Source: Nemertoderma westbladi
Lineage: Eukaryota; Animalia; Xenacoelomorpha
Direction: 5' to 3'
Assembly (NCBI GenBank): GCA_032718475.1
Contig: JAUCBJ010005450.1
Location: 1-54,599 of the forward strand
Length of the DNA: 54,599 bases
Shown here: in pieces, positions 12,143 through 54,599 of the stretch
Layout: each line of letters starts with the position of its first letter
Position numbering within the stretch: position 1 is the first letter of the stretch
Translations under genes and position numbers: made by a program
The notes under the pieces: model-generated
Database searches by the model: none
The model's input: only the letters and a program-made list of their open reading frames with translations
Told to the model about the DNA's origin: nothing

Positions 12143-12797
12143 TGTGGCGGAATCCACTGGAGTTGACAGTGGTGGATTCCGACCGGTGTGGATTGTACGC
12201 GTCGTCGCGTCCGTGGGCTGCTGGGCCAACGCTGGATATATGTTAGGCTGAAGGCCGTTGAAAAGACAGAGTTAAATTGTCAGTATTAATAATCACAGCA
12301 ATTGATAATAGCACAGTCTGAATATAATAATATGCAATACAAACAGTAACGACGACGGTTAAAGCTATTCCGGTCTCACAACTGTAAGGAACTAACTAAT
12401 CTAACTACAGTATCAACTAACTAATAATCAGTAATCATAACGGTTATATCATTGACACATATTACACTCTACACCCTACACTACTGGGCGGCCTTAATAT
12501 CCAATAGATGCGCTCTTGTCCTCCCCAATGTGCTTTCCTGCCTACTATTGGCTTAACCTGATTAATACTCACCTCGCCACTCCCTGTTGGCGTTATCCCT
12601 TGGTGCTAGCCTTACTAGCTTGTTTGTCCCTCTGAGGAAGTTTGACCTCTCACCTCTCTCTGTGGCTTACGGCGTGTGTCGCCCCAGTTGGTTATGAGGT
12701 GAGATTATTATTGGTAATCTCACATCGCCAACTATATTGGTAAAATGCCACTAGTCCCATTTTTGGTGGGTAATGAACGAAATTGAATGTGCTTACA
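12143..12797 (-). repeat. 3' LTR of E2
   Basis: TG...CA termini and adjacent PPT; homologous to LTRs at 32009-32584, 39588-40201 and 46031-46618. Confidence 0.85.
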
Positions 12798-13445: not shown

Positions 13446-14179
13446 CTAGTTTGCTCCTCCCGTCTTCGGGAACCATCTGAGTTTCTTGCCCCTATCGTCA
13501 TCTTGCCTGGGCCGCTTCCTTCCTTCCTATTTATCCTTGAGGCTACTCATCGTCGCCGATACCGTCTTGCCAAGCCCCATTGTTGGTTCTTTGGGCGCAG
13601 GTGTTATCAACTCCCGGTATCGCTTCGCAGGTGGTCCCACTGAATGTCCCTCCTGCCTCCCTCTAGTAGCGTCCCACAAGATCATCTCCATCGCCCGCGG
13701 CACGTGCCCCCCAGAAAGTCCCTGAATTCGATCATATTTTCTGGTGACCATCTGTCTAGGTATCTTTGGGTGTTGATGACCCCTCCGTACGATGCCGCTG
13801 TCGCTACCTCCTGATACGTGAATGGTAGTATCCTCTTGGTGATCTCTTGGTGGGCTTCCACATTAATGTTAAAGAAGCCCCACCAGAACTCCTGGGCCTT
13901 CATCCTTTGTTGTGTCATGACTCCGACATCGGCCCACTCCTCGAAGATTCGGAACTTCTCCTCATCATCGTCCATCCAGTCGCACTGGCGCTCAAAGTGC
14001 CCTCTAAACTTGCAATTTGAACATCTGTTGTGCAACCTCGGACATGCACCCATCTTATGGCTTGACTCGCGACAGTAGAGACACGCCATCCCCTTCTGGA
14101 AACGGTATAGACAGTTCTTTTGCTGATGGGTTAGTCTCCCACAGTAATCGCAACCGTGTACTATTGTGTCCCGCCCCAA
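13446..14179 (-). pseudogene. Extra ORF3 of E2, C-terminal part (frameshifted): three CCHC zinc knuckles and a basic tail
   Basis: CDYCGRLTHQQKNC, CLYCRESSHKMGAC and CSNCKFRGHFERQC. It overlaps the upstream ORF in the -1 frame; a second shift near 13710 and one stop (13527) extend it to 13446. Confidence 0.7.
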
Positions 14180-16074: not shown

Positions 16075-16404
16075 CCAACTGGTGGGGCCTTACATAGGCT
16101 CAGTTTAAGTGAGAGGGTCGTCAAACAGGATGTTAATCGTTCCGATCAGTGATAGCCTACCTCATATATTTCGTTTTTGGTATATTTTGTACAAATATAC
16201 CCCCTAAGTGTCAATTCGCCCTAAATTTGTAATTTTTGTCCATTGCTTTTATTAATTATTCTAGAATTTCCTCCCACCAGTTGCCATAATTTGTTAATTT
16301 TCTAATTTTGTCATTATTTACCAATACCCTACGTCTGTACTACGGGCTGTGCGGTACAGTAGTCTATTTCGTGCGGCCTACACGGTCTATCCTACTGTGC
16401 CCAC

Positions 16405-16885
16405 ATGTCCCCCCCTTTACCCTCACGTGGCGCCCTTAATGCCCACAAGTTTTACGGTACTGTGTACCCTTCTACTACGGTATGCGTACATAACATACCC
16501 CCCAATTCCTCACGTAGCGCCCTCAGTGCCCACAAGTTCTACGGTACTGTGTACCATTCTACTACGGTAGGGTATGCATATATACCCCCCAATTCCTCAC
16601 GTGGCGCCCTCAGTGCCCACAAGTTATACGGTACTGTGTACCCTTCTACTACGGTATGCGTACATACCCCCCAATTCCTCACGTGGCGCCCTCAGTGCCC
16701 ACAAGTTTTACGGTACTGTGTACCCTTCTACTACGGTATGCGTACATACCCCCCAATTCCTCACGTGGCGCCCTCAGTGCCCACAAGTTTTACGGTACTG
16801 TGTACCCTTCTACTACGGTATGCGTACATACACCCCAATTCCTCACGTGGCGCCCTCAGTGCCCACAAGTCTTGCGGTACTGTAA
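16405..16885. repeat. Tandem array, about 6 units of 82-87 bp, between pol and ORF3
   Basis: aattcctcacgt recurs at 16504, 16591, 16673, 16755 and 16837. Confidence 0.95.
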
Positions 16886-17136
16886 ATTAGGTAGGCCTAC
16901 GTTGGTACATTATTGTACCCGTCCGACGTACATAATTGTAACTACCTACACTGTATATTATGTACGTTGGTACATCTGTACCCATCAGACATACATAATA
17001 TCTACTATCTACCTACAGCGTACCTTGGTACTAACTACTTATTTTATTATTTTGCTTATTTTTATTTTTATGTGTGGGAAGGGCGTCTCGCCCTCATTCC
17101 CACCCCCCTCAGTCCAATATATTGGACGACTCAACT

Positions 17137-18144
17137 CTAAGGCGACCCTTCCAATAGGCAACACTTTCCTACCGCCCTCCTGTAGGTCTTCCTATCTTTG
17201 GCCCCTATCTTTCCTCCGATCCTCACTTCCACGGATCTAATTCTTCCATCCTCGTCGGGGTAGGTTTCTACTACCCTAGCTAGTCTCCACTGGTTATTGA
17301 TAATTGTGTCATCCGTGACGATTATCAGGTCACCCTTCTTTAGCTCCCTTTGACTGTTCCTCCATTTACTCCTTTTGTGTAGTGTTGGAAGGTACTCTTG
17401 TATCCACCTTGTCCAATACTCTGCGCTTATTGCCTTAGCGACCTTCCAGCTTTGACGTGAATGCATATCGTCTGGATCCACGCTCCTCATGTCAATCGTC
17501 GCTGGTCTCTCCATAAGTAGGTGTGCTGGTGTAAGGACGTCCAGTGATTCTGGGTCGTCGTTCTCGGGGTATAGCAGTGGGCTATTAATAATCCCCTCAT
17601 ATTTAGCCAACACTGTCCTCAATACGTCCTCCGTGATCCATATGATAATTCATCAGTTTGGTCATTAGTCGTTTGGAGCTTCCCACAAGTCGCTCTACAA
17701 ATCCTAGTGTGTGTGGCGCGTATGGTGTTCTCCTTTCCCACCTTATTAGGTGTTTCCTCATCGCCGCCCTGACATCTTCTCCCTCCAGGATGTCAAGGGC
17801 CTCCGCTAACTCGTTCTCCGCGCCCACGAAGTTACTCCCGTTGTCTGAGTATAATACCTCGACTGTCCCTCCCCTGCGGGTTACAAACCTCTCAAGTGCA
17901 TTAATAAATGCTGACGCCGTAGCGTCCTGGGCTAGTTCTATCCCCACCGCCCTCGTATTATTGCAGACGAAGATAATGCCGTAGCGTTTCTCCGTATGCC
18001 GCATCACCTTTATCTTAATCGGCCCAAACATGTCCACGCCGCAGTGTGTGAATGGTGGGTCGTGATGCCTCACCCTGTTGGCCGGTAATGGCGCCTTCTC
18101 CTGTACAGCCCTCTCCTTCTTCGTCCGTCGGCAGGTCTGGCACT
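17137..18144 (-). pseudogene. BEL/Pao integrase core plus DUF5641 (frameshifted)
   Basis: PFTHCGVDMFGP, YSDNGSNFVG, GFVERLV; then LTPAHLL, YWTRWIQEYLPTL, WRLARVVETYPDEDGRIRSVEV, RRAVGKCCLLE. Confidence 0.92.
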
Positions 18145-18475: not shown

Positions 18476-18987
18476 TGCTGACTCGGTTCACTTCGACCCC
18501 GTACCCCTTCATTTGCTCGTATCGTATCACGGCTTTAGCCGCCCCTTCCAGATCGATGGTGGGTCTCGTTTTGGTATCCTTACCAACTCCCCTGAGGAAA
18601 TCTCCGTAGGCCCTCAGATATGCTACCAGTTTCTTAGTCTTATACCAGCCGGAGCTGTAACTGAGCAACATATCTGTTGGGCTGTCGCACGACTCTCTCG
18701 GTTTTAGTTGCGGTGGCGCCTCCTTAATCTCCCTCGCCAATTGGCTGTTTATTTCCTCACCCTCCGATTCCTCTCCCTCCTCCTCTACTGTTACTTCCTC
18801 TGTACCTGGGTCTACCTTCCTCATTGGTGGCCAGCTCGACCTATCGTTAAGGAAGTGCGGCCCATGCTGCCACAACTCATGCTTTCTCGAGAAAGCGTGG
18901 CGTACAATGCCCCTCGATAGCAGATCTGCTGGATTGTCGTCGGTTGGGCAGTAGTGCCACTTTTCCAGATCGGTCGTTGCCCTTGTC
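18476..18987 (-). pseudogene. BEL/Pao RNase H C-terminus and linker (continues from 22028-22187)
   Basis: [18 protein letters not shown]...LWQHGPHFL; joins across the LINE to the upstream RNase H piece. Confidence 0.85.
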
Positions 18988-21691
18988 GCACAGACACGGT
19001 GGTGGTGTCTGTACTTACATTCGATGTGATTTAGCTTTTAATCGTAGGGAAGATTTAGAGACTTGTGACGAAGTTTTACTGGTGGAACTTTTACTTCCTA
19101 AAACTAAACCTATTTTAATCGGTACTTTATATCGGCCCCCTAAACAATCAGATTTTTTGCAAAATTTTGAAAATACAATTTTATGTAATCTTAGGTCAGA
19201 CTGTGAAATATATTTCTTAGGTGATTTTAATATCTGTTACCATCACAAAGCATCCCCCATCTGTAAACAGTACCAAAGTATTTTAAATTTGTTTGGTTTA
19301 AAACAAATTATTCGAGATTCTACCAGAATTACCAGTAAAACTTCTACTTTACTAGATCACATCCTTTGTAATAATACCGATATTATTTCTCAATCTGGGG
19401 TTTTACCTATAGGTCTAAGCGATCATTTTATAGTTTTTTGCACAAGAAAGACACAAAAATCTTTTTTCGGGGATCATAAAACAGTAACAGTTAGGTCTAT
19501 GAAAAATTACAGCAAGGAACGCTTTTTAAGTTTGTTAGTTAATTCTGACTGGGAACCCTGTTTTAAGGCCGCTGACATTAACCTTGCGTACACTGTTTTT
19601 AAAGATATATTTTTAAAGGCACTTAATACTGTAGCACCAATTAAAGAAATTAGTCTTAAACAACGCACTGAGCCCTGGATGACCTCGGGTATTCTTAGTA
19701 ATATCAGAGAAAGAGATAACTATTTGTATAAATTTAGGAAATACCGTGTTTTAGCTGATTATAATAATTACTGCAAATATAGAAACCTTGTCCAACGGGA
19801 AATAAAAAAAGCTAAATCTGAATATTTGTACAACAAAATAAGTGAGAATAAAGATAATCCAAAAAGTCTATGGTCTACCCTAAAATCTTTAGGTTATAAA
19901 AACCTTAAATCTAAATCGAATATTGTTCTGCAAGATAACGGTGAGCTGATTCATGATCATACTCTAGTTAGTAATTTATTTAATAATTTTTTTACTAGTG
20001 TTGCCTCTAATTTAGTTAAGAAATTACCGTTATCAAGTAATAAATATAGTATAGGGTCCGAAACTCTAAATAATTTTTATTTAGAAAAGTTACAAAATTC
20101 AGAAAAGTTATTTTTAAAACCCGTTTCTGAGGATTTCGTTTTCCAAAATCTACTTAGCCTATCAGCCTCAAAAAGTACCGGTCTAGATCTAATACCTGCC
20201 CGTTTTCTTAAGGATGGTGCTGTAGTACTTAAAGTGCCTATTACTTTTATTATTAATTACTCTATCGTAGATAATGTAGTACCAGACGAACTGAAATTAG
20301 CTAAGGTTGTTCCTCTGTATAAAAAGAATAGTAAAGTAGAACCCTGTAATTACAGACCTGTTAGTATCTTAAGTATTGTATCTAAAATTCTAGAACGTTC
20401 TGTTTTTCTACAGCTGGAGGCACATCTTAGTAGGCTAAATCTGATCTATGAACTTCAGTCCGGTTTTCGTAAATCATATTCTACAGACACCTGCCTTATT
20501 AACTTAACTGATACAATTAGATGTAATAACGCAAAGGGTTTATATACTGGTATGGTAATGTTGGACCTACAAAAGGCTTTCGATACTGTAGATCACGAAA
20601 TTCTGCTTGGTAAGTTAGGCCTGATGGGTGTAGGTTCTATAGACTGGTTCAAGTCCTACCTGTCAGACAGAGGTCAAACTGTAGTCATTAGCAAATCGCT
20701 GTCTACTGTACAAGAGATTACCTGTGGTGTACCGCAAGGTAGTATATTAGGTCCTCTGCTTTTTGTATGCTATGTAAATGATATGATAAGTAGTATAGAT
20801 CCCGATTTTAAACTCATTTTATATGCCGACGACAGTGCTCTTATTTTCTCTCATAAAGATCCTATCCATATTTCCCAAAAGTTAAGTGCAGTTCTAGAAT
20901 CTTGTAATGAGTGGTTGGTTGATAATAAGCTATCCATTCACTACGGTAAAACTGAAAGTATTTTGTTTGGTTCCAAAAGAAAGTTAAAGAAGGTAACTAA
21001 GTTTGAAGTCACTAGTAATGGACATAAGATTGAAAATAAAAAGGAAGTTAAATATTTAGGCGCCACATTGGATAACTGCTTATCAGGAGAAAGCACAGTG
21101 AAAAATATTTTCTCGAAAGTTAACAGTAGGCTTAGGTTTCTATACAGAAATAAAAATAGTTTAAACACCGACTCCCGCAAGTTACTTTGCTCTTCTTTAA
21201 TACAGTGTCACATGGACTATGCGTGCTCTTCTTGGTATGAAGGCTTAACCAAACAGCTTAAATGTAAATTACAAGTAGCTCAGAATAAAGTAGTACGATT
21301 TATGAAAGACTACAAACCTAGGCACCACCTAACTCCAGATGACTTTTCTGAATCTGGACTACTTAACTTAGATAGTAGAGTTAAGCAGCTACGCCTTAAC
21401 CATGTGCATAAAGTGTATAATGGTAAATGTCCCAATTACCTAAAACAAAAATTCAACAGAGTACGCGATACACACTCTTACAGTACCAGAGCTAGTGCTT
21501 CAAACTTCTACCTCCCGAATTGTAAATCCTTTGAATCTGATACTTTCTTTTTTAACGGCATAAAAAATTGGAACGCTCTGCCTAATGAAATTAAAAACCT
21601 AAATAATCAACATTCTTTTAAATCTGCAGTTAAATCTCATCTCCGTGTGCAATGTAAAAATAGGTACAATAGTCCTACAGTAAGTTATTAG
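18944..21691 (+). CDS. LINE ORF2: truncated AP endonuclease plus reverse transcriptase (first ~15 codons are flanking host sequence)
   Basis: HGGGV, YRPP, GDFN, LDHI, SDH; [49 protein letters not shown]. Confidence 0.93.
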
Positions 21692-25746: not shown

Positions 25747-26331
<585 letters not shown>

Positions 26332-26687
26332 CTAAGTGGTTTTATTAAAAAGGAAATGTCCACATACAAATGGGAAAACTTTAAATACAATTAAAACCAG
26401 CAGTTATAATTTGAGTTTTATTTAAAATTATCATTTATTTTTGCATGATCCCCAAAAGCCGAGATGTGCCATACAAAACTGACTCAAGTTTATCACATGG
26501 AAATTAATTAATTAATTAATTAATTAAAAAATTAATTATATTTTTTTAAATGGCAGAACAAATTCGCTGTAAATACAGTTTTACATAACATAGTCATTAA
26601 CTCTCTAATAGTGGGGGTTGGCAGGACGTATATAATTTGATTGGGACGGGGTTTTGATGTCAAATGGAGCCGAAACGCCAAAACTTA

Positions 26688-26996
<309 letters not shown>

Positions 26997-31535: not shown

Positions 31536-32008
31536 TACCAGTTGACTGTTTTTATGAAATAAAAAAGGTCGGTTCCTTATCGGGCCCTTATTCCTTATCG
31601 GGCCCTTATAGGCCCTTCACTAGTAAATACAGTATTCTGTAATCTTATATCTTGTAAACGTGCTTGGTATGGAAATTATTTGTTTCATATTATATTTTTA
31701 TTAATGGTAGCAATGTTTATTTTCTTATTATGTGGGACGAGCCACAAAGTCAGCTAGCCTCACGCCTTACACTTTAGACACTTGTTTAGTTTACTTATTG
31801 CTGACTGACATAGTTCATTTTTGTAATAGTCTTGGCTCGGATTCCTCCCCTGGGCTCCTTCCAACCAGCCAGCTTGCTGGCTTTCTACAGTAGTATTAAT
31901 TGCTACGAATGTTTTTTATTTTAGGCTAACTGATTTTAACTGATTAGGCTAACTAATTAGAATAAATTAGTGTTCTTTATTTTATTTACCTAATACAATA
32001 AGAGCCCG

Positions 32009-32584
32009 AGTTGGCGAGGGAATCCCGACCGATGTGTTTGCTTTTGGATAGTACGCGTTGCCGCGTCTGCTGGCTGCTGAAAGGCTTGTGGTATCTGAAA
32101 GGCCAGAGGCCGAAAGAATAAGTTTTAGTGGCAGTTGTTCGTAATGTCAGAATACAATAATAGCACAGTCAGAATACAATAATAGCACGGTTACTGACGA
32201 CGGTTTAAACCGTTTTGCTTCTGCAGCTCTGCACAAACCAAGTAAACAACAGGTAATAAAGGCAATGGTTATATTACTAACACATATGGAATATTGCTAC
32301 TTAGTTCGTGGCCTGGCCAATGATGCATCCCAATCGGATGGTGTTCTGCCCCACCATTGGCAATCTATCCTTCCTTCCCTTGGCACACCCTGTTCCGCTA
32401 GCTCCCTTCATCCCCCTGAGATGGCTTGTAGCCTCTCATCTCTCCTTGTGGCTGCCAATGTATATTGCCTCCGTTAGTTGTTAGGTGACATTATATTGGT
32501 AATGTCACCTAGCGAACTATAATTGGTAAAAAGCCACTTTCCCCATTTTCCACTAGGTAGTGCAGCGAATAGGATCCGCTCACA
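32009..32584 (-). repeat. 3' LTR of E3 (outer ~16 bp missing)
   Basis: Aligns to 39604-40201; ends ggatccgctcaca next to the PPT. Confidence 0.88.
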
Positions 32585-33386: not shown

Positions 33387-34160
33387 TTAAATTATGTACG
33401 TTGGTACGTTCATACCATACATTAGTACATGTGTACTATGCATGTATTGTATATTTGTACCCATCAGACATACGTAATTGTAACTAGCTACACCTATTAT
33501 GTACATTGGTACGTTCGTACCATATGTTAGTCATATGTTTTTTATATTTTATTTTTGTGGGAAGGGTGTATTGCCCTCATTCCCACCCCCCTCAGTCCAA
33601 TTTATTGGATGACTCATCAACCTAAGGGCGATTCTTCCAGCAGGCAACTCTCCCACTGCCCCCCTGTAGGTCCTCTTATTCTTCGCCCCACTCTTCTTGT
33701 CAATTCCAACTCTCTTGGATCTGACCTTCCCTTCTCCCCAAGATCGGATCTTTCTGTCATCCCACAGAACTCATCATCTTTTCCAGGTGTCAAAATGCCA
33801 CCCTTCATATCATCCTCACAGGTATATGCCACCTCTGCTGGCCTCCCCCTCAATATGTGCGCTGTCGTTAAAGCCTTCGATGTCCCTTGGTCATCCTTCG
33901 GTATGCATAATGGATACCATTTAATGCCCCCTCGCACTCCGCCAGCCCCGTGTTCAACACGCCTCCTCTAATTTCCCCATTCCCTTAGTCACCCTTCATC
34001 ATCGGCTCCTTTCCCTTTGGATTAACCTTCTTACATCCTCTCCCTTTCCACCTTGTCTTCTTATTCGATACCAGGGGTATCTGTATACTCCTTATTTGGA
34101 TCGGCGTCTCTTCCATATATCTCTCCAGATATCTCGCCGTCCAATCTTCCCCATCCTTGT

Positions 34161-36600
34161 ACCGTATCCACCATCCAACATATGTGCTGGCAACAAACTG
34201 AACAAAGCGCTCAAGTCGCTGCTCAAGATGGATACTACCTTGTGTCTTCTGGTGAAGTTCACCTCTGAATATATATAATTTAAAAGCATACATCAGGCTG
34301 GCCATCCACCTGGCGTTGGAAGCAGCACCAGGCTGATAAAATGTATGTGGGTATTCGCCACCAAGTAGAAAAATGGCAAGTACAAGAAGTTCTCGATAAT
34401 CGGCATGGCAGTTAATAGTCCCCAACAGTTCCTTAAGGTCATGTCTTTCCTGGACATATTTATCAGTATCAGGTACACATTGACCCTTTGTTAGATCTAG
34501 GGCCATCCATTGTTTGCGTAGTCTACCATGGAATCGGGGACTAGGGCCACTGGTTGCACCAAATACCAGGCTGTGTACTGCACTGACTATAACCTCCCCA
34601 ATGTGGTGGCGGCAGGCAAGCCATATCACTCGCCGATCTATCCACTTCTCCAGATTCCACTTATAGATTCCACAGATACCACTTCTTGAGATGTATGGGT
34701 GGACCTTACCTCGATAAACTTCAGGAAGCGGTGTACGACATTAATAGAACACACAATGATGCTCTAGGATCTTCTCCATTGGAAATGGTATCGGGTAGAT
34801 CTAAACAACCACCATTAACTGATTGGCCCTCTGAGGATAAACAAGTTACAGCAAAACCCCATATAGGAGATCAGGTCTTAGTGCGAACTAGAGGAATTTG
34901 CAATAAACTGAGTCCAAGATTTTCAAATCCAGGAGTTGTTGCAGGGAGGCCATTTGAGCAAGTAGTACTTTTAGCTGACGGTAGATCCATAAATATTCGA
35001 GATTGTAAAATTATTCATGTTTCTGGTGAAGGGGGTATGTATGTGGAGTAAATTAGTTGTTGTGAATTACTTTAGCCTTATTTGTGTATGGAGGGAGATT
35101 TGATTTGAGATTATTTTCTTTAGTTGAATATAATGCGGAATGTAGGAATGTGAGAAAGACAGACTTTTAGATACCCTACTTCAGTACCGTACCTGTTATC
35201 TTAACACAGGTGCCATCCAGCCAACCAGAATTAGAATTAGTCGTGTCAAAGACAAGAAATGCTACCAAGTGTAACGTTGTACTATTGAAGTAATGTCCCG
35301 AGAGGAACTAGTACTTGCAGCTCCAATTCCCAACAGTTTTGTGTACTTTGTGCTGCCATCAGCATTTGGGACACCACTGCCAGTTATGGCTACAACACAT
35401 CGATCAACATCTGTAAGGGAGCATTTCAGATGAGCCATTTGTTCCCATCCCAGTGGACTGCAATTTTGTGTTCTCCAGGATCAAAGGAGTCCTTAATATA
35501 TTTGGCCCTTGCTGCTCGAGATGCTGACTGGCCACTTAGTGTGCTAGTTTTGCTGAGTGTGACCTGATCTAGATTACCTTCACTGGCCTTGATAATTGCA
35601 GCAGTGTAGGCTGTTGCAGCTCCAGATGAAATTCCAATGCGATCAGCAGTCTGAGCTACTGTCTGGTCATTCATTATGTTCCGTGGCATCATCAGTTGCA
35701 CTGAAGCACACCTCTTGCTTGATGTTGCTGAAGATGGTGGAAGATAGTCAACATCAGAATCAGTACTATCATCCTCTGAAGCAGACCTCGACATATCAAG
35801 TTCAACAATTTTGTCCAAGTCATTCTGCTTTCTAAGCATTTCTTACCATTCCCTGTCAAGTTTACTGTCCAGTTTGTCTTTTTGTTTCATAGCTTCCTCT
35901 TCATATTTCAAATCCCTTGATTTCAGAAATGGTAGATCTTCTCCCTGTCTAAGTTTTCGAATCCATTCACATTCTTCAGGCAGCAGCATACCTATAGCAA
36001 CTTGCCATTGTATTATAATCTATACCTTATAATATATAACTCAAAATTCGATTATTGGATAATAGGCTACCGGTACAGTACTGTAGTAACTGAATATCAC
36101 TCACTAAACCTACTGTATGTAGTAGGCTACATCAGTAGAATATAGTACAAAGCCCTGTGTTTTAGGGTAGTCCTACCGGTACCGGTAGGTAGGACAGTGG
36201 AATGCAGAACATCCAAAATGCAAGAGTGGATCAGAAGTGCAGTAACGCAGTATACTTGTCATGTAGTGTCATTTGTATAGGCCTACAGGTATTACATTAC
36301 TACAACTGTACAGTACAGTACCTTAAAGCCGCCATTCAAATTAAAGATAAACATATGACAAACGTGATGTTATCAGTATTTTTCAAATCTAATGCATTCC
36401 ATGAAAACTGTCCCTTAACCGCACTCAAGCTCATCGGGCGATAAATTTTGCGACAAGTCAAAAATTCATTTAGCTCCAGTAACTTGCATGTTCAACATTA
36501 TGATTCCATACTTGGCACAACTTAATATTATAGGAAATAGAACAAATTAAGCTGACAAGTCTTCTCTGTATCTCAATTTGAATATTTTCGGATCGGTCTA
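34161..36600 (-). mobile_element. hAT-like (probably hATm-type) DNA transposon relic with a decayed transposase, 3' end deleted
   Basis: VHWDG (35426-35839), VFDTTNSNSG (about 35230-35255), WLACRHHIGE and PGAASNARWMA (33985-34629); candidate terminus TAGACCGATCC at 36600; no second TIR found. Confidence 0.7.
34670..35208 (+). mobile_element. Gypsy-like 3' fragment (integrase tail, PPT, 167-bp LTR at 35042-35208) inserted in the transposase
   Basis: AVYDINRTHNDALGSSPLEMVSGR...IGDQVLVR...KLSPRF; purine tract GGTGAAGGGGG then TGT...ACA. Left boundary approximate. Confidence 0.72.
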
Positions 36601-39530: not shown

Positions 39531-39587
39531 AGTTTCCTTGAGTTTTCCTTGAAGTCATGGTTTAGACTTTCTAAGCGTGGTTTAAAC

Positions 39588-40201
39588 TGTGACAGGATCC
39601 CCAAGTTGGCGAGGGAATCCTGACCGATGTGTTTGTTTCTTTTGAATAATATGCATCGCTGCGTCCGCTGGCTGCTGAAAGGCTTGTGGTATCTGAAAGG
39701 CCAGAGGCCGAAAGAATAACTGAGTTTTAGTGGCAGTTGTTCGTAATGTCAGAATACAATAATAGCACAGCTAGAATACAATAATAGCATGGTTACTGAC
39801 GACGGTTTAAACCGTCTTGCTTCCACAGCTCTACACAAACCAACTGAACAACAGGTAATAAAGGCAACAGTTATATTACTAACACATATGGAATATTGCT
39901 ACTTGGTACGTGGCCTGGCCAATGGATGCATCCCAATCGGATGGTGTTCTGCCCCACCATTGGCTAATATATCCTTCCTTACCTTGGCAATCCCTGTTCT
40001 CTGATACCCACGTGCTAGCTCCCTTCGTCCCCCTGAGATGGCTTGTAGCCTCTCATCTCTCCTTGTGGCTGCCAATGTATATTGCCTCCGTTGGTTATTA
40101 GGTGACACTATATTGGTAATGTCACCTAGCCAACTATAATTGGTAAAAAGCCACTTTCCCCATTTTCCGCTAGGTAGTGCAGCGAATTGGATCCGCTCAC
40201 A
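39588..40201 (-). repeat. 5' LTR of E3
   Basis: Terminal inverted repeats TGTGA..GGATCC at both ends; direct repeat of 32009-32584. Confidence 0.9.
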
Positions 40202-41324
40202 TTAGTAGAGTAAACTGGTCTTTGGGGCCGTTTCCCAGGTTGTGGACCACAATGTGGATAGGGAAAACATTTCACACATAGCACAAATTGTTATTTGTCT
40301 GCTTAGGCTACTGTGTATTAGATTAGAAGAGAGCTGGGGTGGGAGCTGGGGGGGGGGGGGGTCTCCCCCAAATAGACTACTGTAGGCCCACTGTTTAATA
40401 GAGCATGCTGTTCACAAACGCCTTATTACATATTCACTTTAGAATAGGCGCTACCTTTATGTTTAATAATTGAAGTATTATTTATTATTATATCCTAGCA
40501 AAGATAAGAAGTTGATGAAACAGAGATATGTCGCTTTTAGGTTGCAATGTTATTCATCTCATTATTGTTTCAAATTGTTTGCACAAAAATACTTGTCCTC
40601 GCTTTAATATGTAAATTTATATGGTGGCCCTCAACCGCCGCACCACCGCGAGAATAATTAATATAGGTCCATCTGATGCAACACAACTCCCCGAACACGA
40701 TTTTGTATGCAATAACACGTCCGGGTGGGTTGGCTAAACATCTGGTCCGGTCGAGAGGTTTTTCTTCAAATATTTTTTTCTCGCAGTAGCAGTTCAGGGC
40801 CACATTGTAAATCAAAATAGGCGAAGATAAAAATAAAATAATCTGGCAATAACAACAATTAAATTGCCTTATGACTCTAGAGTCCCTATTGGCAGATATG
40901 ACAAACACACTTGTTAACTACTGTACAGTACATGTACTGTTCTTATCCTGGGACTTTGGACCAATAGTTGAAAGGTAAATTCCATGTAAAAGATTGCAGC
41001 CTGGACCGGAATACAGACATGTAATAAGTTTTATTGCAAATGTAATAAATAATAATTGGATATAATTATTGTATTGTATTATTATAACTTTTATTGTTAA
41101 TATTTAAATATTTTTGTATTTCATTGATGTTGTTTTTAACCCCTTAAACATGATCAACGTCATTAATAACGAGAACAGGGGTTATAAGAAACTATTAATG
41201 AACACGTTGACAGTGATTATGGCTCTATTGGCAGCCATCGTTACTGCGCACCCTGAAATAATACAGAATATAATGACATCAGATATTTTTAAAGCGGCAT
41301 TTCGAAGTGGTGATTCTGGTAATA

Positions 41325-43551
41325 CAGTCCCGCTCTCAAAAAGCATTCCTTTGATCAAACATTGATCAAACTTTGATCAAACATTGATCAAAGTTTGATC
41401 AAATATTGAAATGTATCAGGCTTATAAATCCTGCCATTGAGTTCTACCAAAGGCGCTGCACTTCAAAGTCTAGATTCCCACTGAGCTGTGTGTCAATCAA
41501 GCAGCCCTAACTCTCTCTCTCTCTCTCTCTGCTCTCTGTGTGTGTAATGCTCCATGTGCTCTGTAGGATGTCTGCAGAGCACATAGGACACCACTTCCAT
41601 ATCATACCATAGGTTTGTAAGCTATAGCCGTTATTTAAACCAGTTAAAGCCTAGGTTATAATAATTTACAGCGATTATCAGAAAATAACAGCCGCAATTG
41701 AATCTCCACTTGGCGGTGTGGTGGTAATGAAAGTAATGGCAGGTATGGGCTGTGAGGAGTTTAATTCGGAGTTACGCAATGGGTTGGGTGGATGGCTACA
41801 ATACATTAGAATGGTGGGGGGGGGGGGGGGCACTAGCGTACCGAGGGGGAGGCCATATGAAAGCATACTGAAGTCTTTCCATTTGAAATGAGAAAAAAAA
41901 TAATATATAGGCCTATATATATTAAAGATCCACATTCCAAATTTTCTGAAACAAAAGCATTTTTCTAAAGGGGGGGGGGGGGGGGGGGTAATATAAGAAT
42001 ATCCCTTGGTATTATTATATCAGTTGACATTGTGGCCTTCTGGCTGGCCACAAGTGGGAAATACGTTGCTTTCTTGTAAGGAGAAATAATTGATTCGAGT
42101 CACAACAAATTATGTCATAGGGAGTACAGGAGTCAGCGGTCTCCGTGCTATTTGCTGTATATTATTAGCTTGGGGTGCCGACAGCGACAGACCACTAACA
42201 AAGTAAAGGCATATCATGTGTAATGGCTCTTAGCTTATGCCGCCCCAGCATGTAAAACCATTTATCTGCTGTGGAATGGAATTCCCCGAAATTTCGAAAT
42301 TTACTATAAAGTCTTCCCAAGAGATTAGACAGCCAACTAACCCACACACAGGAGGCCGCCAACCAAAGAGATTGGCCTCCTGGCACTGAGCTGGCCTAGT
42401 CGCAAAGGAACTATGCAGGTAGTAATGTGTACTAAACAATACTAATGGCTACAATACATTATAATGGGGGGGGGGGGAGGGGGGGGGTGCAGGTCCGCAG
42501 CTTGTACAATGATATAGTCATAGTCCACAACAAGAGAGGGGATGGGATCACTGGGGTTATATTGATGCCTTGTCCTTGACTTACAACGACCTGTGAGCAA
42601 AAGTGTGGTTTGTCGGCCGGATGGTTAAAACCCTCCATTAATTAAAAATGAATGAGCATAATTTAATAAGTATTACTAACCCAATTTGATTTTTAATATT
42701 TAAAAAATTATAATTACAATACGTTAATCTGAATTAAAAAATACGTAACTAATGATGTACATAACATAGTTTACTTTAAAACAAATTAGATTTTCAATAA
42801 AATTACCTTATCAGAGTATTAAAATTAAATTACGTACATTTTTAGAAGGTATTTTAGGGGGTGCGCTGGCGCTAGCGCTTGGATTTATTTATTTCTTTAT
42901 TTACATTTATTAGTATAATTAGAGACAGGGGCAGGAAGGAAGCTTGTCGAATTTACACAATTACTGTATAAGCAAATGCAATGCAACGGCAGCCATCGCG
43001 CTGCTACGTCAATGGAGGTCTTTGGCCTTGATTCTGATTTAAGGAACATTGAAACTAATTTCTAATATAACAATAATTTAAAAATATTCCAAAGGATGTT
43101 TTTCTGAACTAGTTGTTGGTGTAATAATAGGCCCTGCCCTACAAGAACAAGACTCAGTCTGGGACACTACCACAACACTGCCATGTAAATCCAATCGCGG
43201 TCCATCCACAAAGTCAAGCAAGCTCCATCCACCGCCCTGTCAATCACATCGCGGCTTGGCCATTAACAAAAGCCAGTTCTCGGCGGGAATCTGAGTTCAA
43301 AGGCATGCCGCAGAAGAGCGATGTAAACTGTTACCTTGAAATCATTTCAATGTCATTTCAATATGAGACAGAAAGTCTGGAATTTCGGTCCATCGATTTC
43401 AAGGTCATTTCAATATGCCATCAATGTCATTTCAATGTCAATGCTACTTTCAATGATATTCTATGGACACATTTTGATCAAACTTTGATCAATGTTTGAT
43501 CAAAGTTTGATCAATGTTTGATCAAAGGAATGCTTTTTGAGAGCGGGACTG
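41325..43551. mobile_element. Non-autonomous TIR DNA transposon (TA TSD, CAGT termini; Tc1/mariner-like or CMC-like)
   Basis: About 78-bp essentially perfect TIR CAGTCCCGCTCTCAAAAAGCATTCC followed by tandem TTGATCAA palindromes; TA on both sides; no transposase recognised. Confidence 0.9.
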
Positions 43552-44332
43552 TACGAATACCGACAACATTGACAACATAGTCAACGGAACAGCTGCAATA
43601 GATAAAGTGTTTGGAGGTGAGGGTCTTTCCCAGACTATTAACCACGAACTGGCAAACACCGCACAAGCTAAAATAGACAATTTACTTACTACTGAGTAAG
43701 TATAAAAACGTAATAATTTATGCAATATAGTAAATCATTAATTTTTTTATAAAATGGAACAGTTCATTCAGCCACACTATTCGTTTACACATTAAAACAT
43801 AATAAAGGTGCAAGGGGGGCATAAGGGGTGGCAGAACAATTATGATGCATTATTGTAATTTGTAAGCGTTCGTAACGCTGTATATCCCATTAAAATATCG
43901 TTACAACTTACATATATAATATACTATATAGATAATTAATAAGAGACAGCGGAGTAACAGTATAGCACAATCAGCCCATCACCATGTATAGTATACCACT
44001 ATAATACCAGTAAGCATTTAAGCTGTAGGCCTATTTACAGTAGTATATACAATACTCCAGTTCCGTCAGATAGTTGTGTCCGTTGTGTATGCGGTAGGCC
44101 ATGCCCAACAGGTCATAACCATTATGGACCTATAATTCTACCACCTTTATTATAGGAAGGGATCTTGGGGTCTTAGCCTCGAATGATAAGTTTTCATTTA
44201 CCGAAAATAACTTATCTTTTATTGGCGCAATTGTAGGACTAATCCCATCACATGCGTACTTTTTAACTGGGTAGTGTACAAATTTAGGAATCGCATAATA
44301 TTCATTGAAATGAATATCACATATCTCTCCAA

Positions 44333-46030: not shown

Positions 46031-46618
46031 TGTAAGCGGATTCAATTCCGCCTCATTACCCTCATACAGTACAATGGGATACGGCATTTTCAGCAATATG
46101 TTGGAGATACGAGATTAGCAATAATTAATCTCGTATCACAACCAACATCGGGGACAGTACAAACCCCAAAGCCACACACAAAGGGAGGTTTGAGGTCAAA
46201 CCACCTCGGAGGGGACACAGCTAACAGGGGCTAGCAACAGAGGGGAAACACTCCCAGAGAATGGAAGGGTGTGAAGTAGGTTGTTAGCCAATAGGGGCGA
46301 GGGAGAGCATCCACTAGGTAGCAGGCCAAGGTAATGTAGGAGTGAAGTAATCATATATTATCTCCTACATACCGGTTTATCATTCAGTTACCCAGTTGTC
46401 AGTTTCAGTGCAGACCGGCATTATTGTCTTACCGTCATCACAGTGCTGTTATATGCTGTCATCACATATTACTATTACCGGTTTTATCATTACTGTGCTA
46501 TCATTACACATATTATTATATATCGGAACGAAAGGAACATCAAACTCAAACATTTTCTCCACCAGCCTGCGGCGACGCGTACAAACATAACCCAGTCGGG
46601 ATCCCTGATCCCGTCACA
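46031..46618 (+). repeat. 5' LTR of a further E2/E3-family element (E5), followed by a short leader that abuts the RTE
   Basis: Starts TGTAAGCGGATTCAATT...CATTACCC like the E2 LTR and shares GGCATTTT...GAGATTA.CAATAAT; ends GATCCCGTCACA. Confidence 0.78.
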
Positions 46619-46698
46619 GTAAGACAATATTGAGAACTACTAGAACTGTGACTGCTAGAAGAGATAAAGTAAAGATGAGCGATAGAGGACCCCGATCA

Positions 46699-48880
46699 TC
46701 AGAGGGAGTGAGGAAGTAGATCTGGTATGACGTCGTCTTTACTTCGCCAGAAGTACCCACTGAATCTTAATCTGCGTTGTTGTCTCCAGCTGATGTTTAG
46801 GGCTGCCCTTAGTAGTCTTGTGTAGCAACCATCAATTCGTTGTTCAAGTGATTTAGTCAGTGTCCTGGTCTCACCCCCGTATAAAAATACACTTTCCACT
46901 GTGGCTCGAAAGAACTTAGTCTTCAGGTGCCTGGAGAGATCTGATTTCCAGATGGTATCCATTTTTGATAGAGCTACCCAAGCCTTTGCTTTCCTAACTT
47001 CTATGTCCTTTTTGCTACTCTCTATCCATGATCCAAGGTACTGGAAGTCATCGACCTTCCTTAGTTGATTATTAGCAATGGTTGTCAAGTTTCCATCAAC
47101 ATTAAAGGTCATGAATTCGGTCTTGGTAGCATTTATATGTAATCCAACCTCCTTAGCAGCCCTCTCCACTTTATTTAGTAGAAGCTGTGCATCTGCTAGC
47201 GTATTAGAGAGCAGGGCGATGTCATCCGCAAAGTCGGTGTCTGTGACTGTAGTTGCCGGATATCTACTGCTTCTGCGTTCTTGAAGTGTGAATCCCAGAT
47301 CTTCACCCTTTGTGGCCGTCCTCATTGCGTAATCCAGCACAATTACAAATAGTAATGGTGTTAATGTGTCACCTTGCAGTACGCCAGCCAGGATTGAGAA
47401 AAACTCAGTTTCACCATCTGGTGAGAGTACCTGCGCTTCTGTGTCACAATATAACAATCCAATGCCAGCAACAATTACTTCTGGTATTCCATAAGCTCTT
47501 AGGATTTCAAGCATTTTACCTCTATGGATGGAGTCGAATGCCTTCTTGAAGTCCACAAAAGTCATGACTGCGGGGAGATTCTTTGACTTAATTCCTTCAA
47601 TCAGTCTCCGTAGTGCAAGTATCTGAGCTATTGTTGATCTACTTGGTCGAAATCCGTTTTGGCTCATACGCAGTAGTTTCTCTATGTGAGGCCTAATCCT
47701 ATATAGAATCATTTTATTGTATATTTTGGCAGCTACCACAAGCAGACAGATCCCACGATAGTTTGTTGGTATGCCGAGGTCTCCTTTCTTGGGGAGAGGC
47801 TTTAGTTGACCTTTAGTCCAAATTGGTGGTGGCTTTTCCCCTTTTAACATCCGGTTGCAAACATTCAATAATGGTCTATTTAGCACTCAGGTTTTCCATA
47901 CCTCCGCTGGGATTTCATCTAATCCACTCGCTTTATTATTGGACATGCTTTTAATGCTTGTTTGGAGTTCGGCAGGTGTGAAGTCCCCTGTTTCTATAGG
48001 TAGTGTCTTGTCATATATTTTCCTTGTAGGGCTGACCTCGATGTTTGGTGGCTGCCCAAGCAAGTTGCTGAAGTGATTTTTCCACTTCCCAACACGTTCT
48101 TCAGGACTATCGGCTTTGAGGCGCCCCTTTGCACAACTTTTCCGACCAGATACCTCATTTACAGTTTGCCAGGTAAGTCTTGATTGTTGCTGTATGTGAG
48201 CAGTTGTAATTGCTTCAGTTTTATCCTGTATGTACTTTTCCTGGCTGATGTTGTAGGCCAATTTAAGATTGTCCTTAGCTTTCTCAACCTTGTTAATGTT
48301 TTCGGTTGTTGGTTGTTCGGTTTTAACTTTGTAGGCTATCTTAAGATCTTCTCTCTTACAAGTAACCTCAGAGTTTTGCCATGGCACATACTGTTTTCGT
48401 TTAGGTTTCTGGGGGATATGCCTCTTAGCTGATTCCTTGTGGGCTGTTATTATATTCTGGTATATTGAATCGGTGGATTGGTCTTCATCCATTGACTGAA
48501 GTGCTTCAAAGCGGTTTCGAACTTCTACTGTATAAGCATCCTTTACAGCATTGTCAGTTCTGAGTTTCTCCCAGTCATAGTTGATTTGCTTGCTTGTCCT
48601 GGGTTTGCTGGCTCTCAAACTGAGTCTGATCTCTGCAGTCACAATTCTGTGGTCCGAACCAATTAAGTTGAACGAGCTGTATGCCTCGCAGTTGATCATG
48701 CTATTTCGCCACTTTTTGTTTATAAGGATGTAATCCAGTTGTGCTTTGGTTCCATTAGGGTATTGAACGGTCCATAGCTTCCCCTTACTCTTTTCGAATG
48801 TGTTGTTTGTTGGTATCAATTCACATTCTTCCATTAGGTCTAAAAGTAAGTACCCATTTCTGTTAGAACTGGTGTTGATG
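46699..48880 (-). mobile_element. RTE-clade LINE fragment (AP endonuclease tail plus RT, one in-frame stop at 47887, both ends truncated)
   Basis: QLDYIL, GSDH; NYRGICLL, QNGFR, VDFKKAFDSI, GVLQGDTLTPLLF, DFADD, FQYLGS, SVFLYG.ET.TL. Confidence 0.9.
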
Positions 48881-49015
48881 AATTATTTCACTATAAGATA
48901 GCATTTGTAGTTTAACTTTAACGTAAAAACTTTTGAAAATCCGACGTATTTTGATTAAGTTACAGTAATGTAATATGCCTATTCATATTTGTACACATAA
49001 AACCCTTAGGTACTC

Positions 49016-49086
49016 TCGTGGCGTAGTGGTCAGATGGTTAAGGCGTTGGTTACATTACGTAGGTTACGAGTTCGAATCCCAGTCGG
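49016..49086 (+). promoter_or_regulatory. tRNA-like A/B-box segment
   Basis: TGGTCAGATGG (49027) and GAGTTCGAATC (49068); no complete cloverleaf. Confidence 0.6.
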
Positions 49087-52000
49087 GAAATTTGTATTTT
49101 GGGGCCATTTATTTTCGTGTGGTGCTAATTGGTAGGCCAATGAGAAGCGTACAGCGTAGCGAATAATGAGCCAGGCCAATCATAGGGCATAAATTATCTT
49201 ATTGCTCAAATGTGAGGCAGTGGAAAATTCTGTTAGGATTCCATGTCCCAGATTTAGTGTAAGGGCCGGACTGCGTTGAACGATGAGCTGGGCCAATCAT
49301 AGAGCACGAAGCACTTCATTGCTCAATGGTGAAGCTGTGGAAAATTCTGTTTAGTTTCCATGTGCAATTTCTAGTATAAAAAGGCCGGTTTGCCTTCGGT
49401 TATCACCTTATATTATGTCACTTCTTACCACTTTGTAAAACTCTTACTTTTGTAAAATTAGTTTATTCGGTTTCTTGTTGAAACTTCGTTTGATAAATCC
49501 TTTTGTAAAACTGTAAATATACTGCAATTTCCTGACATGTTTTCTTTTGGTCCGACTTCGGGACAGCCGAACACCAGGGAGATGGCAGCCTAGATCGTTA
49601 GGCCGTAAGCAACGCAGGGAAGGGATGTCCACAACACGCTAGCGCCCACATTTGGATTGACCGCGCACCCCCTTTGCCCTTCGAAATACTCCACTTGCTA
49701 TGCAGCGCCCGCTTTGTGAGAAGGTAAGACTTTGTTCGACGCCCTTGCCCGCCGTAAGACCTATAGATCAGGGTAAGCGTGACACCGCACTGGACGCCGC
49801 AAATTTAGGATCAAATAATTATATCCAGACACCCCCCCCCCCTTCTTGTCAGTCCTACGAACCCCTGGGTTAACCTGTACTTCCTACAGGTGCGAACTAT
49901 TGCCATTCGTCAGTACGCGAGTACACATTAGGTACGGACAGCATACGTTCCATAATTTAGTGATTCATAGCACTGACTGTTTGGTACCGGTTCGCTTTGT
50001 AGAACGTACATTAGTACCCCCCCCCCCCCCCCCCCTTGTCTGGAGTTAGCTATTTGATCAGGCAAGGAGCATTTCTGCTACCGGCACACTGCTTGGCCTA
50101 GGGAGGTTTATTAATATCCTACCGCGCCTTGCCACGTACTGATAGGTATTGCTGCTAACTACCGCAGCAACAAAGTTCTAGAATTAAATTAGTATACCAG
50201 ATCAGCTAACGTACGGTAGCGATTAACCCCTATTCTTATCTTACAACCAGAATCTGGTATTAGTGCCGATCACGGGTGTAGTTACTAACACTGTGGTTGC
50301 CCATTGGGTTGTGGATAGGAAGGAGAGAGCTTTGACGTCATTCGTGAGTATAAAGTTCTACAAACGCGACTAGTTTATTTTAGTAGCTAGCGCACGGTAT
50401 CATTTTAGTCAGAAAATCACTAAAACCTAGTAAAGGAATTACACGAAATTGTTTTATTTGTAACACACCCACACACACACGCCCTAAAACATATTGCCCT
50501 TAAAGTTCTACTAGCTATAGCGTACTATACATTACTTTAGGTGGAAATTATCCGTATTTGTAAAATTAGGATCTGATTTAGTTGCGGCAAAATAAGGAGT
50601 ATTTCACTTTCGTTATTAAACTGTTGTTTGTCTGGACAACGGTATTGTTACATTTAGGCCTGACCTTTTAGACTGATTTCGTACAGGGGGATCAGTTATT
50701 GTTACATTTAGGCACGACCCCTTTTCGACTGATTTAGGACTGTCAGTGTTGTTACGCTAGGTCTGTTAACCCACTAGCTCGTATATAAACCATATAAATC
50801 ACACCGCGGCAAGTTACTGTATTTAGGACTGTCAGTGATAGTTAGGATTCGCTGCGCGGGGATTGTTTTCCCGTGAGTTTGGTCTGTTACTGTAACTGTA
50901 CATCTGCCTCACCGGTTAGAGGACAGGTATCCTTCTGTCTAGTACGTAGGCATTCGACCCGCTCACGTACATAGAATAGATACAAGGCTCTGTTCCTCGC
51001 CAGTAGTCGTTTGTGTACTGTATCTGTTTGTTTAGATATCCTGGACTGGGATTTGTTGTCAGATACTGTACAAGCCCGTATACATTACTAGAGTCTCATA
51101 GTAAGATACATCGTTACTAGGATCTGGTAAGCGGTATACTACTGGACCCTTACAGTAGGAAGTATTTTATATAAATTAGTATATAGTATTTCTACCATAG
51201 TGTATAGTATTCCTACCTTACAGTAGGAAGTATATTATACAAATTCTGAAATTAGTGTATAGTACTTCTATCGTAGCGTATAGTATAGTTTAGGATTGTT
51301 AGCTATTGAAAGTAGGAGATATTTAAAATTTAAGGTTAGTAAATTTAGTAATTTAGAACGTCCCCTGCTTCAGTAGGCTTTTAGGGTAGCTAGTACTTTC
51401 GTATTTAATCTTTGACTAGCTAACAGTTAGTTTGTAGCACTTTGTTTTACGCCGTGTGTGTGCGGTGTTACTTTTCGGTACTTGAAAAGGTACATAGGGT
51501 TTAAAGACCAATTTGTATCGGTACCTAGGAAGATTTTTCGTAAGCGTAGAAGTAAAACTCTCACCTTCGACCTTTTCAGGACTCAAGGACTCATTTCTGG
51601 ACCGCTTCGAGGATTAGACCGCTTTTCGCAAAGTTTGGGAGACAATAAATTCGTCCGCGCCGCCGAAAAACGGAAAGACCCACGTCCGGTTTGTATTTGG
51701 GAATTTGTACGACTGGAAGATCAAAGGAACGTAAGTTTTACGACTCGCGTCGTTCAAACTTAAGAAAGCACAGTAGTACTCAAAATTTGTGGGTTTCACT
51801 GTCTATTAGTAGTGTTGTTGGTACATATTTTCCCGTTAGACGTTGCTGTTTGGCCTATTGTTTTACTTGTTGATCTACATTTTGTTAACGTATACCGTTA
51901 TCTCACTTATTCGTACAAATTTAGCCGGTAGGCTAGATTACTACTTATTTTATTATATACCTTGTTAGTTTTATTTGTACCGGTTAGGGTATATATGATA

Positions 52001-52160
52001 TATATATATATCAAGGTAAGTTTGACATTTGTACATTTCGACATTTTGACATTTCGACATTCTGACTTGTTGATTTATTTGTACCGGTTAGGTAAGTTTG
52101 ACACTTCAACATTCAGACACTTGACATTTTATTACCCGTACTTGACGTATATAATAAGAC

Positions 52161-54599
52161 ATGAGTGACACACCCCATTCGACGAGATACCCACCTACCG
52201 ACTATGACTCGTGCGACCCGGACAGATCGACAGTAGACGAACCGAGAAGGAGAACCCGAGATTCCACCGATGTCACACCGCTTGCATCGCCGGTACCCCG
52301 AACGGAAATACCGGAAGCCGCAACGCGTGGCGACGGCAGAATCGAAGATTTCCTTACCGTCCCGCAGACTAGATCGCGGGAACCGGACATGGTAAGTTCG
52401 ACTGGAAGCCAGGAGAACGTTATTAGAAGTATAGGAGGACACATGGCCCAGATTACTCGGAACCTCGGAGAAGGTTTTCGCGTTTTACGCGAGTTAACCG
52501 CCCCGATGTCGAGATACGAGTTCTACACCTTACAGGTAAGAATAGAAAGTAGGGTACATGCCTCCGTAGATAAACTTAAAGGTTTGCACGAACTTGCAGA
52601 GTTGCGTGGCGACAACTTTACTCAGGTAAAGATAGTAGATAAATTGGTAAGTGCGAGAGAAAGCCTTATCCAGTTTAAGTCGGTGATAAGATTGGCTCAA
52701 CAGGAGCAGTTCGACCAACTGCTAGGTGAGTCAGTTTCGGACGCGTTGTTACAACCCGAAGAGGAAGAAGAACTCTACTGCCTGGACGGAAGGTTGGAAA
52801 CGCTGACCAATTTTCTTCGTAGATGCGGCGTACCGATCGACGAACCGGAACTCGAACCGCGAGGGACGACGGAAGTTCTCACTACGGAAGGCTCGCGAGC
52901 CTACCAACATCCACCACTGGATAGATCGTTCGTTAGCGTACGGAGCAACGTTGGCGACGTTAGTAGAACAGCGTCTGGAATTACTCGACAACAACAGGAG
53001 GTTGCACGCCGACAACAAGTCGCCGAGGAAGAAGCGCAACTACAGATGGCACAGATCACCATCGAAGGAGAAAAACAGCGCAGAGAGGACGTAGCGAAAC
53101 TTGCGAAACTTCAAGCGCAGGCTGAGTTCGAAGCATCAGAGATGCGGAGACTGGAGGAGGACTTAGCGCGAGAAGCGGCCGCGGCGGCAGCAGCCGACGA
53201 GTTAGCACGACAGGCGGCAGCTGACGAGTTAGCACGGAAGAAAGCAGCATCCGACGCTCGTGCCAAGTTGGAGGCGCGGCAAATAAACGCTCGATTAGCT
53301 ATACAGGAAGCGGAATTAGCGGCACAACAACAGGACGCAGATCGACGCGAAAGGGAGATGCAACTACAGTTCGAATTGAATCGTAGATCGCGCGAGACAG
53401 CGAACGCGCAAGCGGACCTCGAACTCGACGCGAGAGATAGATCTATGAGATCGCGAACTGGACACGACTTGTCTGCCCTGGATCGTATGGAAGCTCGATA
53501 TCGCGGAATACAGAAGCGGATCGAGGAAGGAAGCGTGGGAGCGATAGATCGAGGAGAGGAGTTCGTCGAGGATTACTGTAAACGTTTTCCCCAAGTTATT
53601 CCTATGCTCAAACCCACGACTCCGATAAAACCGGTCTTTGTTACGAAACCTAAGGAAATAACGCCTGTGCGTTCGACGCAAGGCAACAGGTTTGTTGTGA
53701 CGGAATTACCGCAACCTAGGGCGACTTCATCGCCAATTTTAGCAGGTAACATTACTAGTCCACCTACAGTAAGTCGTAGTTTACTTGTAGAGAGAGACGA
53801 ACCTGCGTTTATGACAGTAAAACAGGTGAGTAAACCATTACAAGTTAAACCTGTGACGTGCTGCGCGAACCCAGTCATTTATAAACCTACAGTAGAGCTT
53901 AACTCAGATGTTTTTACTAGACCTCTCACCCAATGTTTAACGAGACCTACGACTTCGTGGAAGGCTTGCGAGCCTACCGAACAACGGAGAGCCGTAGATC
54001 CCAGATCACAACGAACTCGACCAAGGATAATACGCCGGACGCGAACCCGCCAACCACCTTATCCGGACGACAGCGATTCATCCAGTGACTCGGAGTCGAC
54101 GGAACGGGAAATATTCCGTACGGGAGCGGCAGCGGCAGCGGATTACAAACGGGAGGAGAGATCGACGAATCCCTACATCGACAATCCACCTCGAGAAACA
54201 CCCCAACAGAAACCCACGTTGCAACCAGCGGAAGCGATCAGCACCAACAGACTCGCCGAAATAATGCGACCTGTAGCGGACCGACTAGCTCAGATAGAAG
54301 AGCGACTCGAAGCGCAACCGTCGGATCGATCACGGACCAGCGTGGAATTGGAACAACCTAGACAACATCGACCACCGAGGAGAGAACAGGAGACTAGACG
54401 GACTCCGACACATCGAGAGGAAGATCCCGTTAATAATTCCTACCGACGAACAACGCGCGGAAGGGAGCGACTGGACGACGCCATCGAACAGGGACGCGGA
54501 CAGTTGGATTTAGTTAGCGAGATCGCGAAATTCGCGGCTAGACACGGATTACCGGCACAGCAACCGCCGAAGTTCTCTGGCAACGCGAAACACTGGCGT
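52161..54599 (+). pseudogene. Decayed BEL/Pao gag of E4
   Basis: ATG MSDTPHS..., A/E/R-rich coiled coil with stops; ends LPAQQPPKFSGNAKHWR, the start of a DUF1759-like domain. Confidence 0.7.

Follow-up and report, generated by a model that had tools for sequence, protein, structure and literature searches.

In a 54,599-nt stretch of Nemertoderma westbladi DNA (the window), the 11 nucleotides adjoining the end of the LTR of the retrotransposon remnant E5 (46619–46629, GTAAGACAATA) are the exact complement of a segment within the same LTR (46422–46432, TATTGTCTTAC), with 11 of 11 positions paired at offset 0. This pairing is a real feature of E5, and the earlier note had located both 11-mers correctly. 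We consider it likely that reverse transcription of E5 starts from a primer of its own making, all self-derived readings taken jointly. We lean, by a modest measure, toward the version in which the LTR segment 46422–46432, cut from the element's own RNA just behind the segment, would act as the primer. The parts of E5 and the element that interrupts it are as follows.

46031–46618, plus strand: E5 LTR, 588 nt, from TG (46031) to CA (46618); blastn against the E2 LTR gives 72.6% over 186 nt (E 5.5e-15)
46288–46292, plus strand: CCAAT box, aligned across E2, E3, and E5
46353–46361, plus strand: TATA-like element, putative function
46384–46389, plus strand: Inr-like TCAGTT, ∼32 nt past the TATA-like element, with a second copy at 46399–46404; predicted start near 46386
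46422–46432, plus strand: candidate self-primer segment, ending in AC
46433–46439, plus strand: CGTCATC (CGTCGTC in E2 and E3), directly 3' of the predicted cut
46598–46612, plus strand: U5 hairpin GGGATC/GATCCC, pair probability 0.98–1.0; E2 and E3 form this stem too, with larger loops
46619–46629, plus strand: primer-binding-site position, no TGG, exact complement of 46422–46432
46646–46652, plus strand: CTGTGAC, alternative partner of 46613–46619, predicted to pair with probability 0 when the primer segment is present and 0.96–0.97 when it is not
46675–46713, plus strand: start of a gag-like frame, resembling that of E3 by eye; E5 ends here
46714–48882, minus strand: non-LTR reverse transcriptase element replacing the rest of E5 (RVT_1, E 1.7e-34)

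The E5 remnant thus consists of the LTR and 95 nt only, with the junction at 46714 taken from loose ends; the element beyond it is presumably RTE-like. As described in the earlier note, the paired segment lies downstream of a TATA-like element and of TCAGTT (46353–46361, 46384, and 46399 are all present). The TATA and Inr labels in E5 and E3 are our assumption, and the spacing between the two motifs is 31–33 nt in both elements. Neither E5 nor E3 has a TGG closer than 70 nt to its LTR end, the first TGG past the E5 LTR (46723) lies inside another element, and no tRNA gene was found within the window. In 1500 dinucleotide shuffles of the E5 LTR, 11 pairs at offset 0 were never obtained. With offsets of 0–9 and splicing permitted, 0 of 200 shuffles reached the match and the best of 11 foreign LTRs gave 7 nt; the specificity of a blind search is weak per locus, 11 nt being reached by 4 of 44 foreign LTRs.

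When the E5 RNA is folded from 46386, the primer duplex is predicted with a probability of 0.94–1.0, and it is still present (0.55–0.67) when folding starts at 46422. The earlier note also proposed a GTCACAG/CTGTGAC stem. These motifs can pair, but are predicted to do so only with the primer segment absent, and CTGTGAC occupies 46646–46652 rather than 46647–46653. In the predicted fold, CGTC of 46433–46439 pairs with GACG at 46574–46577, a pairing that does not rise above chance across relatives: a conserved second helix next to the cut was rejected as a general feature, as E2 alone beat all 200 shuffles and 3 more of 22 rows stood at ≤20/200.

LTR homology to E2 and E3 identifies E5 as what is left, an LTR with its leader, of a truncated retrotransposon of the BEL/Pao family, a label that applies because the LTR family is shared with E2 (integrase, DUF5641) and E3 (weak DUF1759). 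The relevant parts of these two elements are:

12143–12797, minus strand: E2 3' LTR, same family, with the homologous segment at 12358–12368; no 5' LTR in the window
14161–16089, minus strand: extra ORF of E2 (ORF3), possible 3'-5' exonuclease, no Pfam hit
17140–18142, minus strand: E2 integrase core and DUF5641 in two frames, the BEL/Pao marker for the LTR family
32005–32583, minus strand: E3 3' LTR, lacking its last bases, with a polypurine tract ahead of it
39579–39587, minus strand: E3 primer-binding-site position, GTTTAAACC
39588–40201, minus strand: E3 5' LTR, 614 nt
39805–39813, minus strand: E3 candidate primer, GGTTTAAAC, which falls within a 16-nt palindrome

The end of the E5 LTR aligns as homologous with that of the E2 3' LTR, and at the latter (12143) run X3 contigs of other copies stop or diverge. 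All three LTRs (588 nt in E5, 614 nt in E3, and 655 nt in E2) have TG...CA ends and fall inside the BEL/Pao range of 0.2–1.2 kb. E2 and E3 are 72–76% alike in the pol-end and 3' regions, have the LTR in common, and each carry a polypurine tract before the 3' LTR. Their domain matches are DUF5641 (E 2e-26) and rve (5.5e-7) in E2 and DUF1759 in E3 (7.2e-5, below cut-off); all 26 of 26 homologues of the E2 integrase carry the BEL domains PF05380 or PF18701. A primer site for E2 can be predicted from its LTR segment; among the loose ends listed, the one at 12143, a mixture of three contigs with an agreement of only 0.59, does not show the predicted letters. Within that LTR segment (12358–12368), most of the read depth has a different letter at 12360, which the primer site would be expected to follow. 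Three further observations concern E2. At window position 12302, one 56-nt contig (run X5) is joined to a 21-base T run at a conserved CTGTGCTAT motif, as a poly(A) tail would give, 54–56 nt behind the E2 primer segment (the run type is our guess). Six tandem copies of 82–87 nt occupy 16406–16902 in the interval between pol and ORF3, and an intact-looking 946-aa non-LTR reverse transcriptase frame (18851–21691) lies in E2 pol on the other strand.

Comparison of E5 with E3 shows covariation as put forward in the earlier note: 6 of the 9 E3 pairs differ from E5 on both sides. Only 9 of 11 positions pair in E3, followed by 2 mismatches. Cross pairing of the E5 leader with the E3 LTR, or of the E3 leader with the E5 LTR, amounts to 4–5 nt only. 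A 9-nt match such as that of E3 arises by chance in 8 of 1500 dinucleotide shuffles and is equalled by 1 of 11 foreign LTRs, and in a blind search 33 of 44 reach 9 nt. The primer would end at LTR position 402 in E5 versus 397 in E3, and ACCGTC(A/G)TC is common to both sites. Flanking anchors and pairwise alignment agree with the earlier statement that the two sites have the same position, but four MAFFT runs (three modes in one set) put them in different columns, the E5 primer being aligned with neither the E3 nor the E2 primer site. In the predicted E3 fold the primer duplex has a probability of 0, and the primer sits in a palindromic hairpin; since 8 of the 9 E3 pairs belong to the palindrome, the match is also a direct repeat. 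E3 is therefore a weaker case than E5.

We searched metagenome contigs by integrase alignment and found 509 relatives, of which the best 80 were kept; the 43 loci with a locatable gag start were examined and the other 37 excluded. Among these 43 loci are 23 distinct self-type elements, in which a perfect 10–15-nt complement of the element's own LTR lies 0–9 nt past the LTR end. The match is 11 nt long in 15 of them, 11–12 nt in L046, 10 nt in three, 12 nt in three, and 15 nt in one. Eleven of the 23 are contiguous as in E5; in the other 12 the match appears only once a predicted GT-AG intron within the LTR is spliced out. The paired segment ends in AC in 20 (as in E5 and E3) and in AT in the other three. 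TGG sites of the tRNA type were found in 6 of the 43 loci (L033, L038, L041, L047, L056, and L064); the remaining 14 comprise 3 duplicates or untestable kin, 4 with a GT leader lacking an LTR part, and 7 showing neither type clearly. The positives L005, L014, L072, and L078 come from targeted or relaxed searches, and most LTR ends were set by eye. The point at which both LTR copies diverge fixes the LTR end in a strict subset of 10 loci: six loci without TGG give 10–12 nt (0–2 of 200 shuffles), three TGG loci give 4–5 nt (94–195 of 200 shuffles), and L014 gives 7 nt (6 of 200 shuffles), or 10 nt with any GT donor permitted. A pattern for the LTR end, which retrieves E2, E3, and E5 from the window, had no match in viral_contigs or metagenome_contigs, and an integrase search of viral_contigs found no relative.

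Within this sample, the spliced primer ends in AT in L004 (1627), L011 (4637), and L072 (3825); by eye, pairing in this subgroup resumes past a 3-nt bulge, with changes on both sides. Close kin with and without the intron have the primer end in common (L005 versus L031/L035, L061/L078 versus L066, and L010/L024 versus L025), which suggests repeated intron loss or gain among these close relatives.

In a tree of 30 rows calculated from 510 pol columns (quick search), a single branch with an SH-aLRT of 97 separates all 23 self-type elements from the 6 with TGG sites, and the character requires one change compared with a shuffled mean of 5.5. This count includes L014, relabelled once its spliced match had been found; before that, two changes were needed for the TGG label. 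E2 forms a long branch at the split between the two types (support 16), and grouping it with the TGG elements gives p-AU values of 0.146 and 0.47, so that neither placement is rejected. The E2/E3/E5 family may belong to the self-type clade or, given the distant integrase of E2, may be a second origin.

We propose the following route for E5. Transcription would start near 46386, and folding of the RNA would pair 46422–46432 with 46619–46629. By analogy with Tf1, the element's RNase H may then cut between AC and CG after 46432, and the freed 3' end would be extended into U5 at 46618; the terminal C (46432) lies opposite G46619, which would place the first added nucleotide at the last base of the LTR. 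This would give a primer ∼46 nt long, a 5' fragment paired only through its last 11 nt. During plus-strand synthesis the primer would be copied back into its binding site, so that both would stay matched, and such copying back would explain why the site matches only the spliced junction in 12 relatives, with E5 as the presumptive intron-less form. In this scheme we infer the cut, the enzyme, the start, and action in cis. The claim of the earlier note that the family self-primes finds backing in the position of the site, in the E5/E3 covariation, and in the 23 further BEL elements, whereas its strict Tf1 parallel is doubtful, because the TATA–Inr spacing places the likely start 35–40 nt before the paired segment. 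The primer segment would thus probably lie inside the transcript, unlike in Tf1, where the first 11 bases form it.

The pairing could instead be a leader structure serving packaging, dimerization, or translation control, with priming by a tRNA fragment, a distant site, or a protein. The two mutually exclusive folds predicted for E5 are switch-like, a tRNA fragment could serve any single element, and the family is tRNA-primed according to the ICTV (PMC8742986). We nevertheless give this explanation a minor share: the paired site lies 0–9 nt past the LTR end, at the TGG position of relatives, with the two types mutually exclusive on the tree, and it varies in ∼20 elements yet tracks the element's own LTR, in 12 of them across a splice junction, which is impossible for a host tRNA.

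A transcript that starts at 46422, with its first 11 bases as the primer in the strict manner of Tf1, appears rather unlikely. It would account for a duplex of exactly 11 nt, the Tf1 length, in E5 and 15 of 23 relatives, with the start site providing a hard edge, and the duplex survives folding from that position. The TATA–Inr spacing in E5 and E3, however, points 35–40 nt upstream, and the first exon would measure only 4–7 nt in the 12 spliced relatives.

The same segment may also prime in trans, supplied by a short transcript of the LTR alone, or be provided by the 3' R copy of the genomic RNA, options which we regard as improbable. It is present in every LTR, solo LTRs included, and retention of the intron in the DNA of spliced relatives would imply that spliced and unspliced copies coexist; on the other hand, the cis fold is predicted to form readily in E5, and the Tf1 precedent acts in cis (PMC7175516). 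A chance match in AT-rich sequence, to which the foreign LTR equalling the 9 nt of E3 might point, is scarcely credible and was already largely refuted by the shuffle test on E5, and 23 elements repeat the pairing with a fixed length and end.

The preferred reading, an internal primer cut from the element's own RNA, does not involve ORF3. The earlier note had speculated about a link between self-priming and an ORF3 exonuclease, but neither the 80 BEL loci (best E 0.82) nor E3 gave an ORF3 match, and the space from pol to the polypurine tract is 59–581 nt in 22 of 23 self-type loci, the figure for L035 being a pattern miss. With homologues and matches missing and the space after pol short, ORF3 is not supported as a priming partner, and the pairing does not depend on it. 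For ORF3 of E2 itself, an atlas lead to PF01612 (3'-5' exonuclease) has a score of 0.92 with 161 shared features, which is under the tool's guide value, and no homologue was found among proteins of near length. Frames inside E3 (33988–35886) have no Pfam hit, are unlike E2 ORF3, and perhaps represent a nested insertion.

The window holds several other elements. E1 (1–581 and about 11111–11804, minus strand) is a BEL element with LTRs 98.6% alike; no TGG and no complement of its own LTR is seen in it (best 5–6 nt, contiguous or spliced), its LTR end being estimated and its 3' LTR leaving the window. A separate LTR-like element (about 49060–49565 and 52158–54599), a tRNA-type neighbor of E5, carries a primer site of the TGG type at 49548 and a gag-like frame of 814 aa. 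An element at 41323–43553 ends in perfect inverted repeats of 81 bp, composed of 11-nt units, and an X3 contig that joins 41322 to 43552 represents its empty site. Exons of a host membrane protein, which we take to resemble SURF4, occupy 25747–26996 on the minus strand.

Of known systems, Tf1 is described as having no tRNA site and an 11-nt self-primer, whose 3' end has to be freed by a cut (PMC7175516, PMC4600332). Tf1/Tf2 of Schizosaccharomyces pombe, Tj1 of S. japonicus, and the Tf1/sushi group have, like E5, an 11-nt site beside the 5' LTR that complements their own LTR. The Tf1/sushi pol is of the Ty3/gypsy (chromovirus) type, whereas the LTR kin of E5 carry BEL domains. The first 11 bases are paired in Tf1, whereas the E5 segment is apparently internal, 35–40 nt behind the predicted start, and a predicted intron splits the segment in 12 BEL relatives, the BEL case being read from sequence alone. 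To the Tf1 RNase H cut 3' of the paired segment corresponds, in BEL elements, only the conserved AC end (20 of 23 relatives, E5, and E3). E5 would most likely work like Tf1 self-priming, but it stands outside the Tf1/sushi group.

According to the ICTV profile of the Belpaoviridae, the primer site is 18 nt long and serves tRNA-Arg or tRNA-Gly, and replication is poorly understood (PMC8742986). With tRNA-primed BEL/Pao elements (Belpaoviridae, Semotivirus) the present family shares TG...CA LTRs, a polypurine tract, a DUF1759 gag, and integrase with DUF5641, but E5 and E3 have no tRNA-Arg or tRNA-Gly site and no TGG near the LTR end. Going by what the elements with the same LTR family encode, E5 is a BEL/Pao element; its primer site is where it differs from the family as described. 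A canonical site is also lacking in fungal GalEa Copia elements and bivalve TRIMs, for which PMC6934838 proposes short inverted repeats as a stand-in; both arms are internal and 12–41 nt apart there, whereas in the E5 family one arm lies in the LTR, ∼190–220 nt upstream. We found no report of BEL/Pao self-priming in the literature searched; subscription papers, Repbase, and GyDB lay outside this search and may hold a remark. A word search of PMC3118150, PMC554778, and PMC2996953 returned no mention of PBS or tRNA.

The chances seem to us evenly balanced that a large BEL/Pao branch does without tRNA priming and uses an internal primer from its own LTR, joined by the spliceosome in about half of the sampled members, with E5 and E3 as intron-less forms and possibly a second origin. 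The mode of priming reverse transcription is a defining trait of LTR elements. If our reading is true, self-priming would have originated at least two times, in Ty3/gypsy and in BEL/Pao, and would span a wide animal branch. Such elements would be independent of the tRNA supply and, presumably, of silencing by tRNA fragments, and tools that demand a tRNA site would overlook them. Their primer ends would be exact and testable, and the spliced variants would link the start of cDNA synthesis to splicing.
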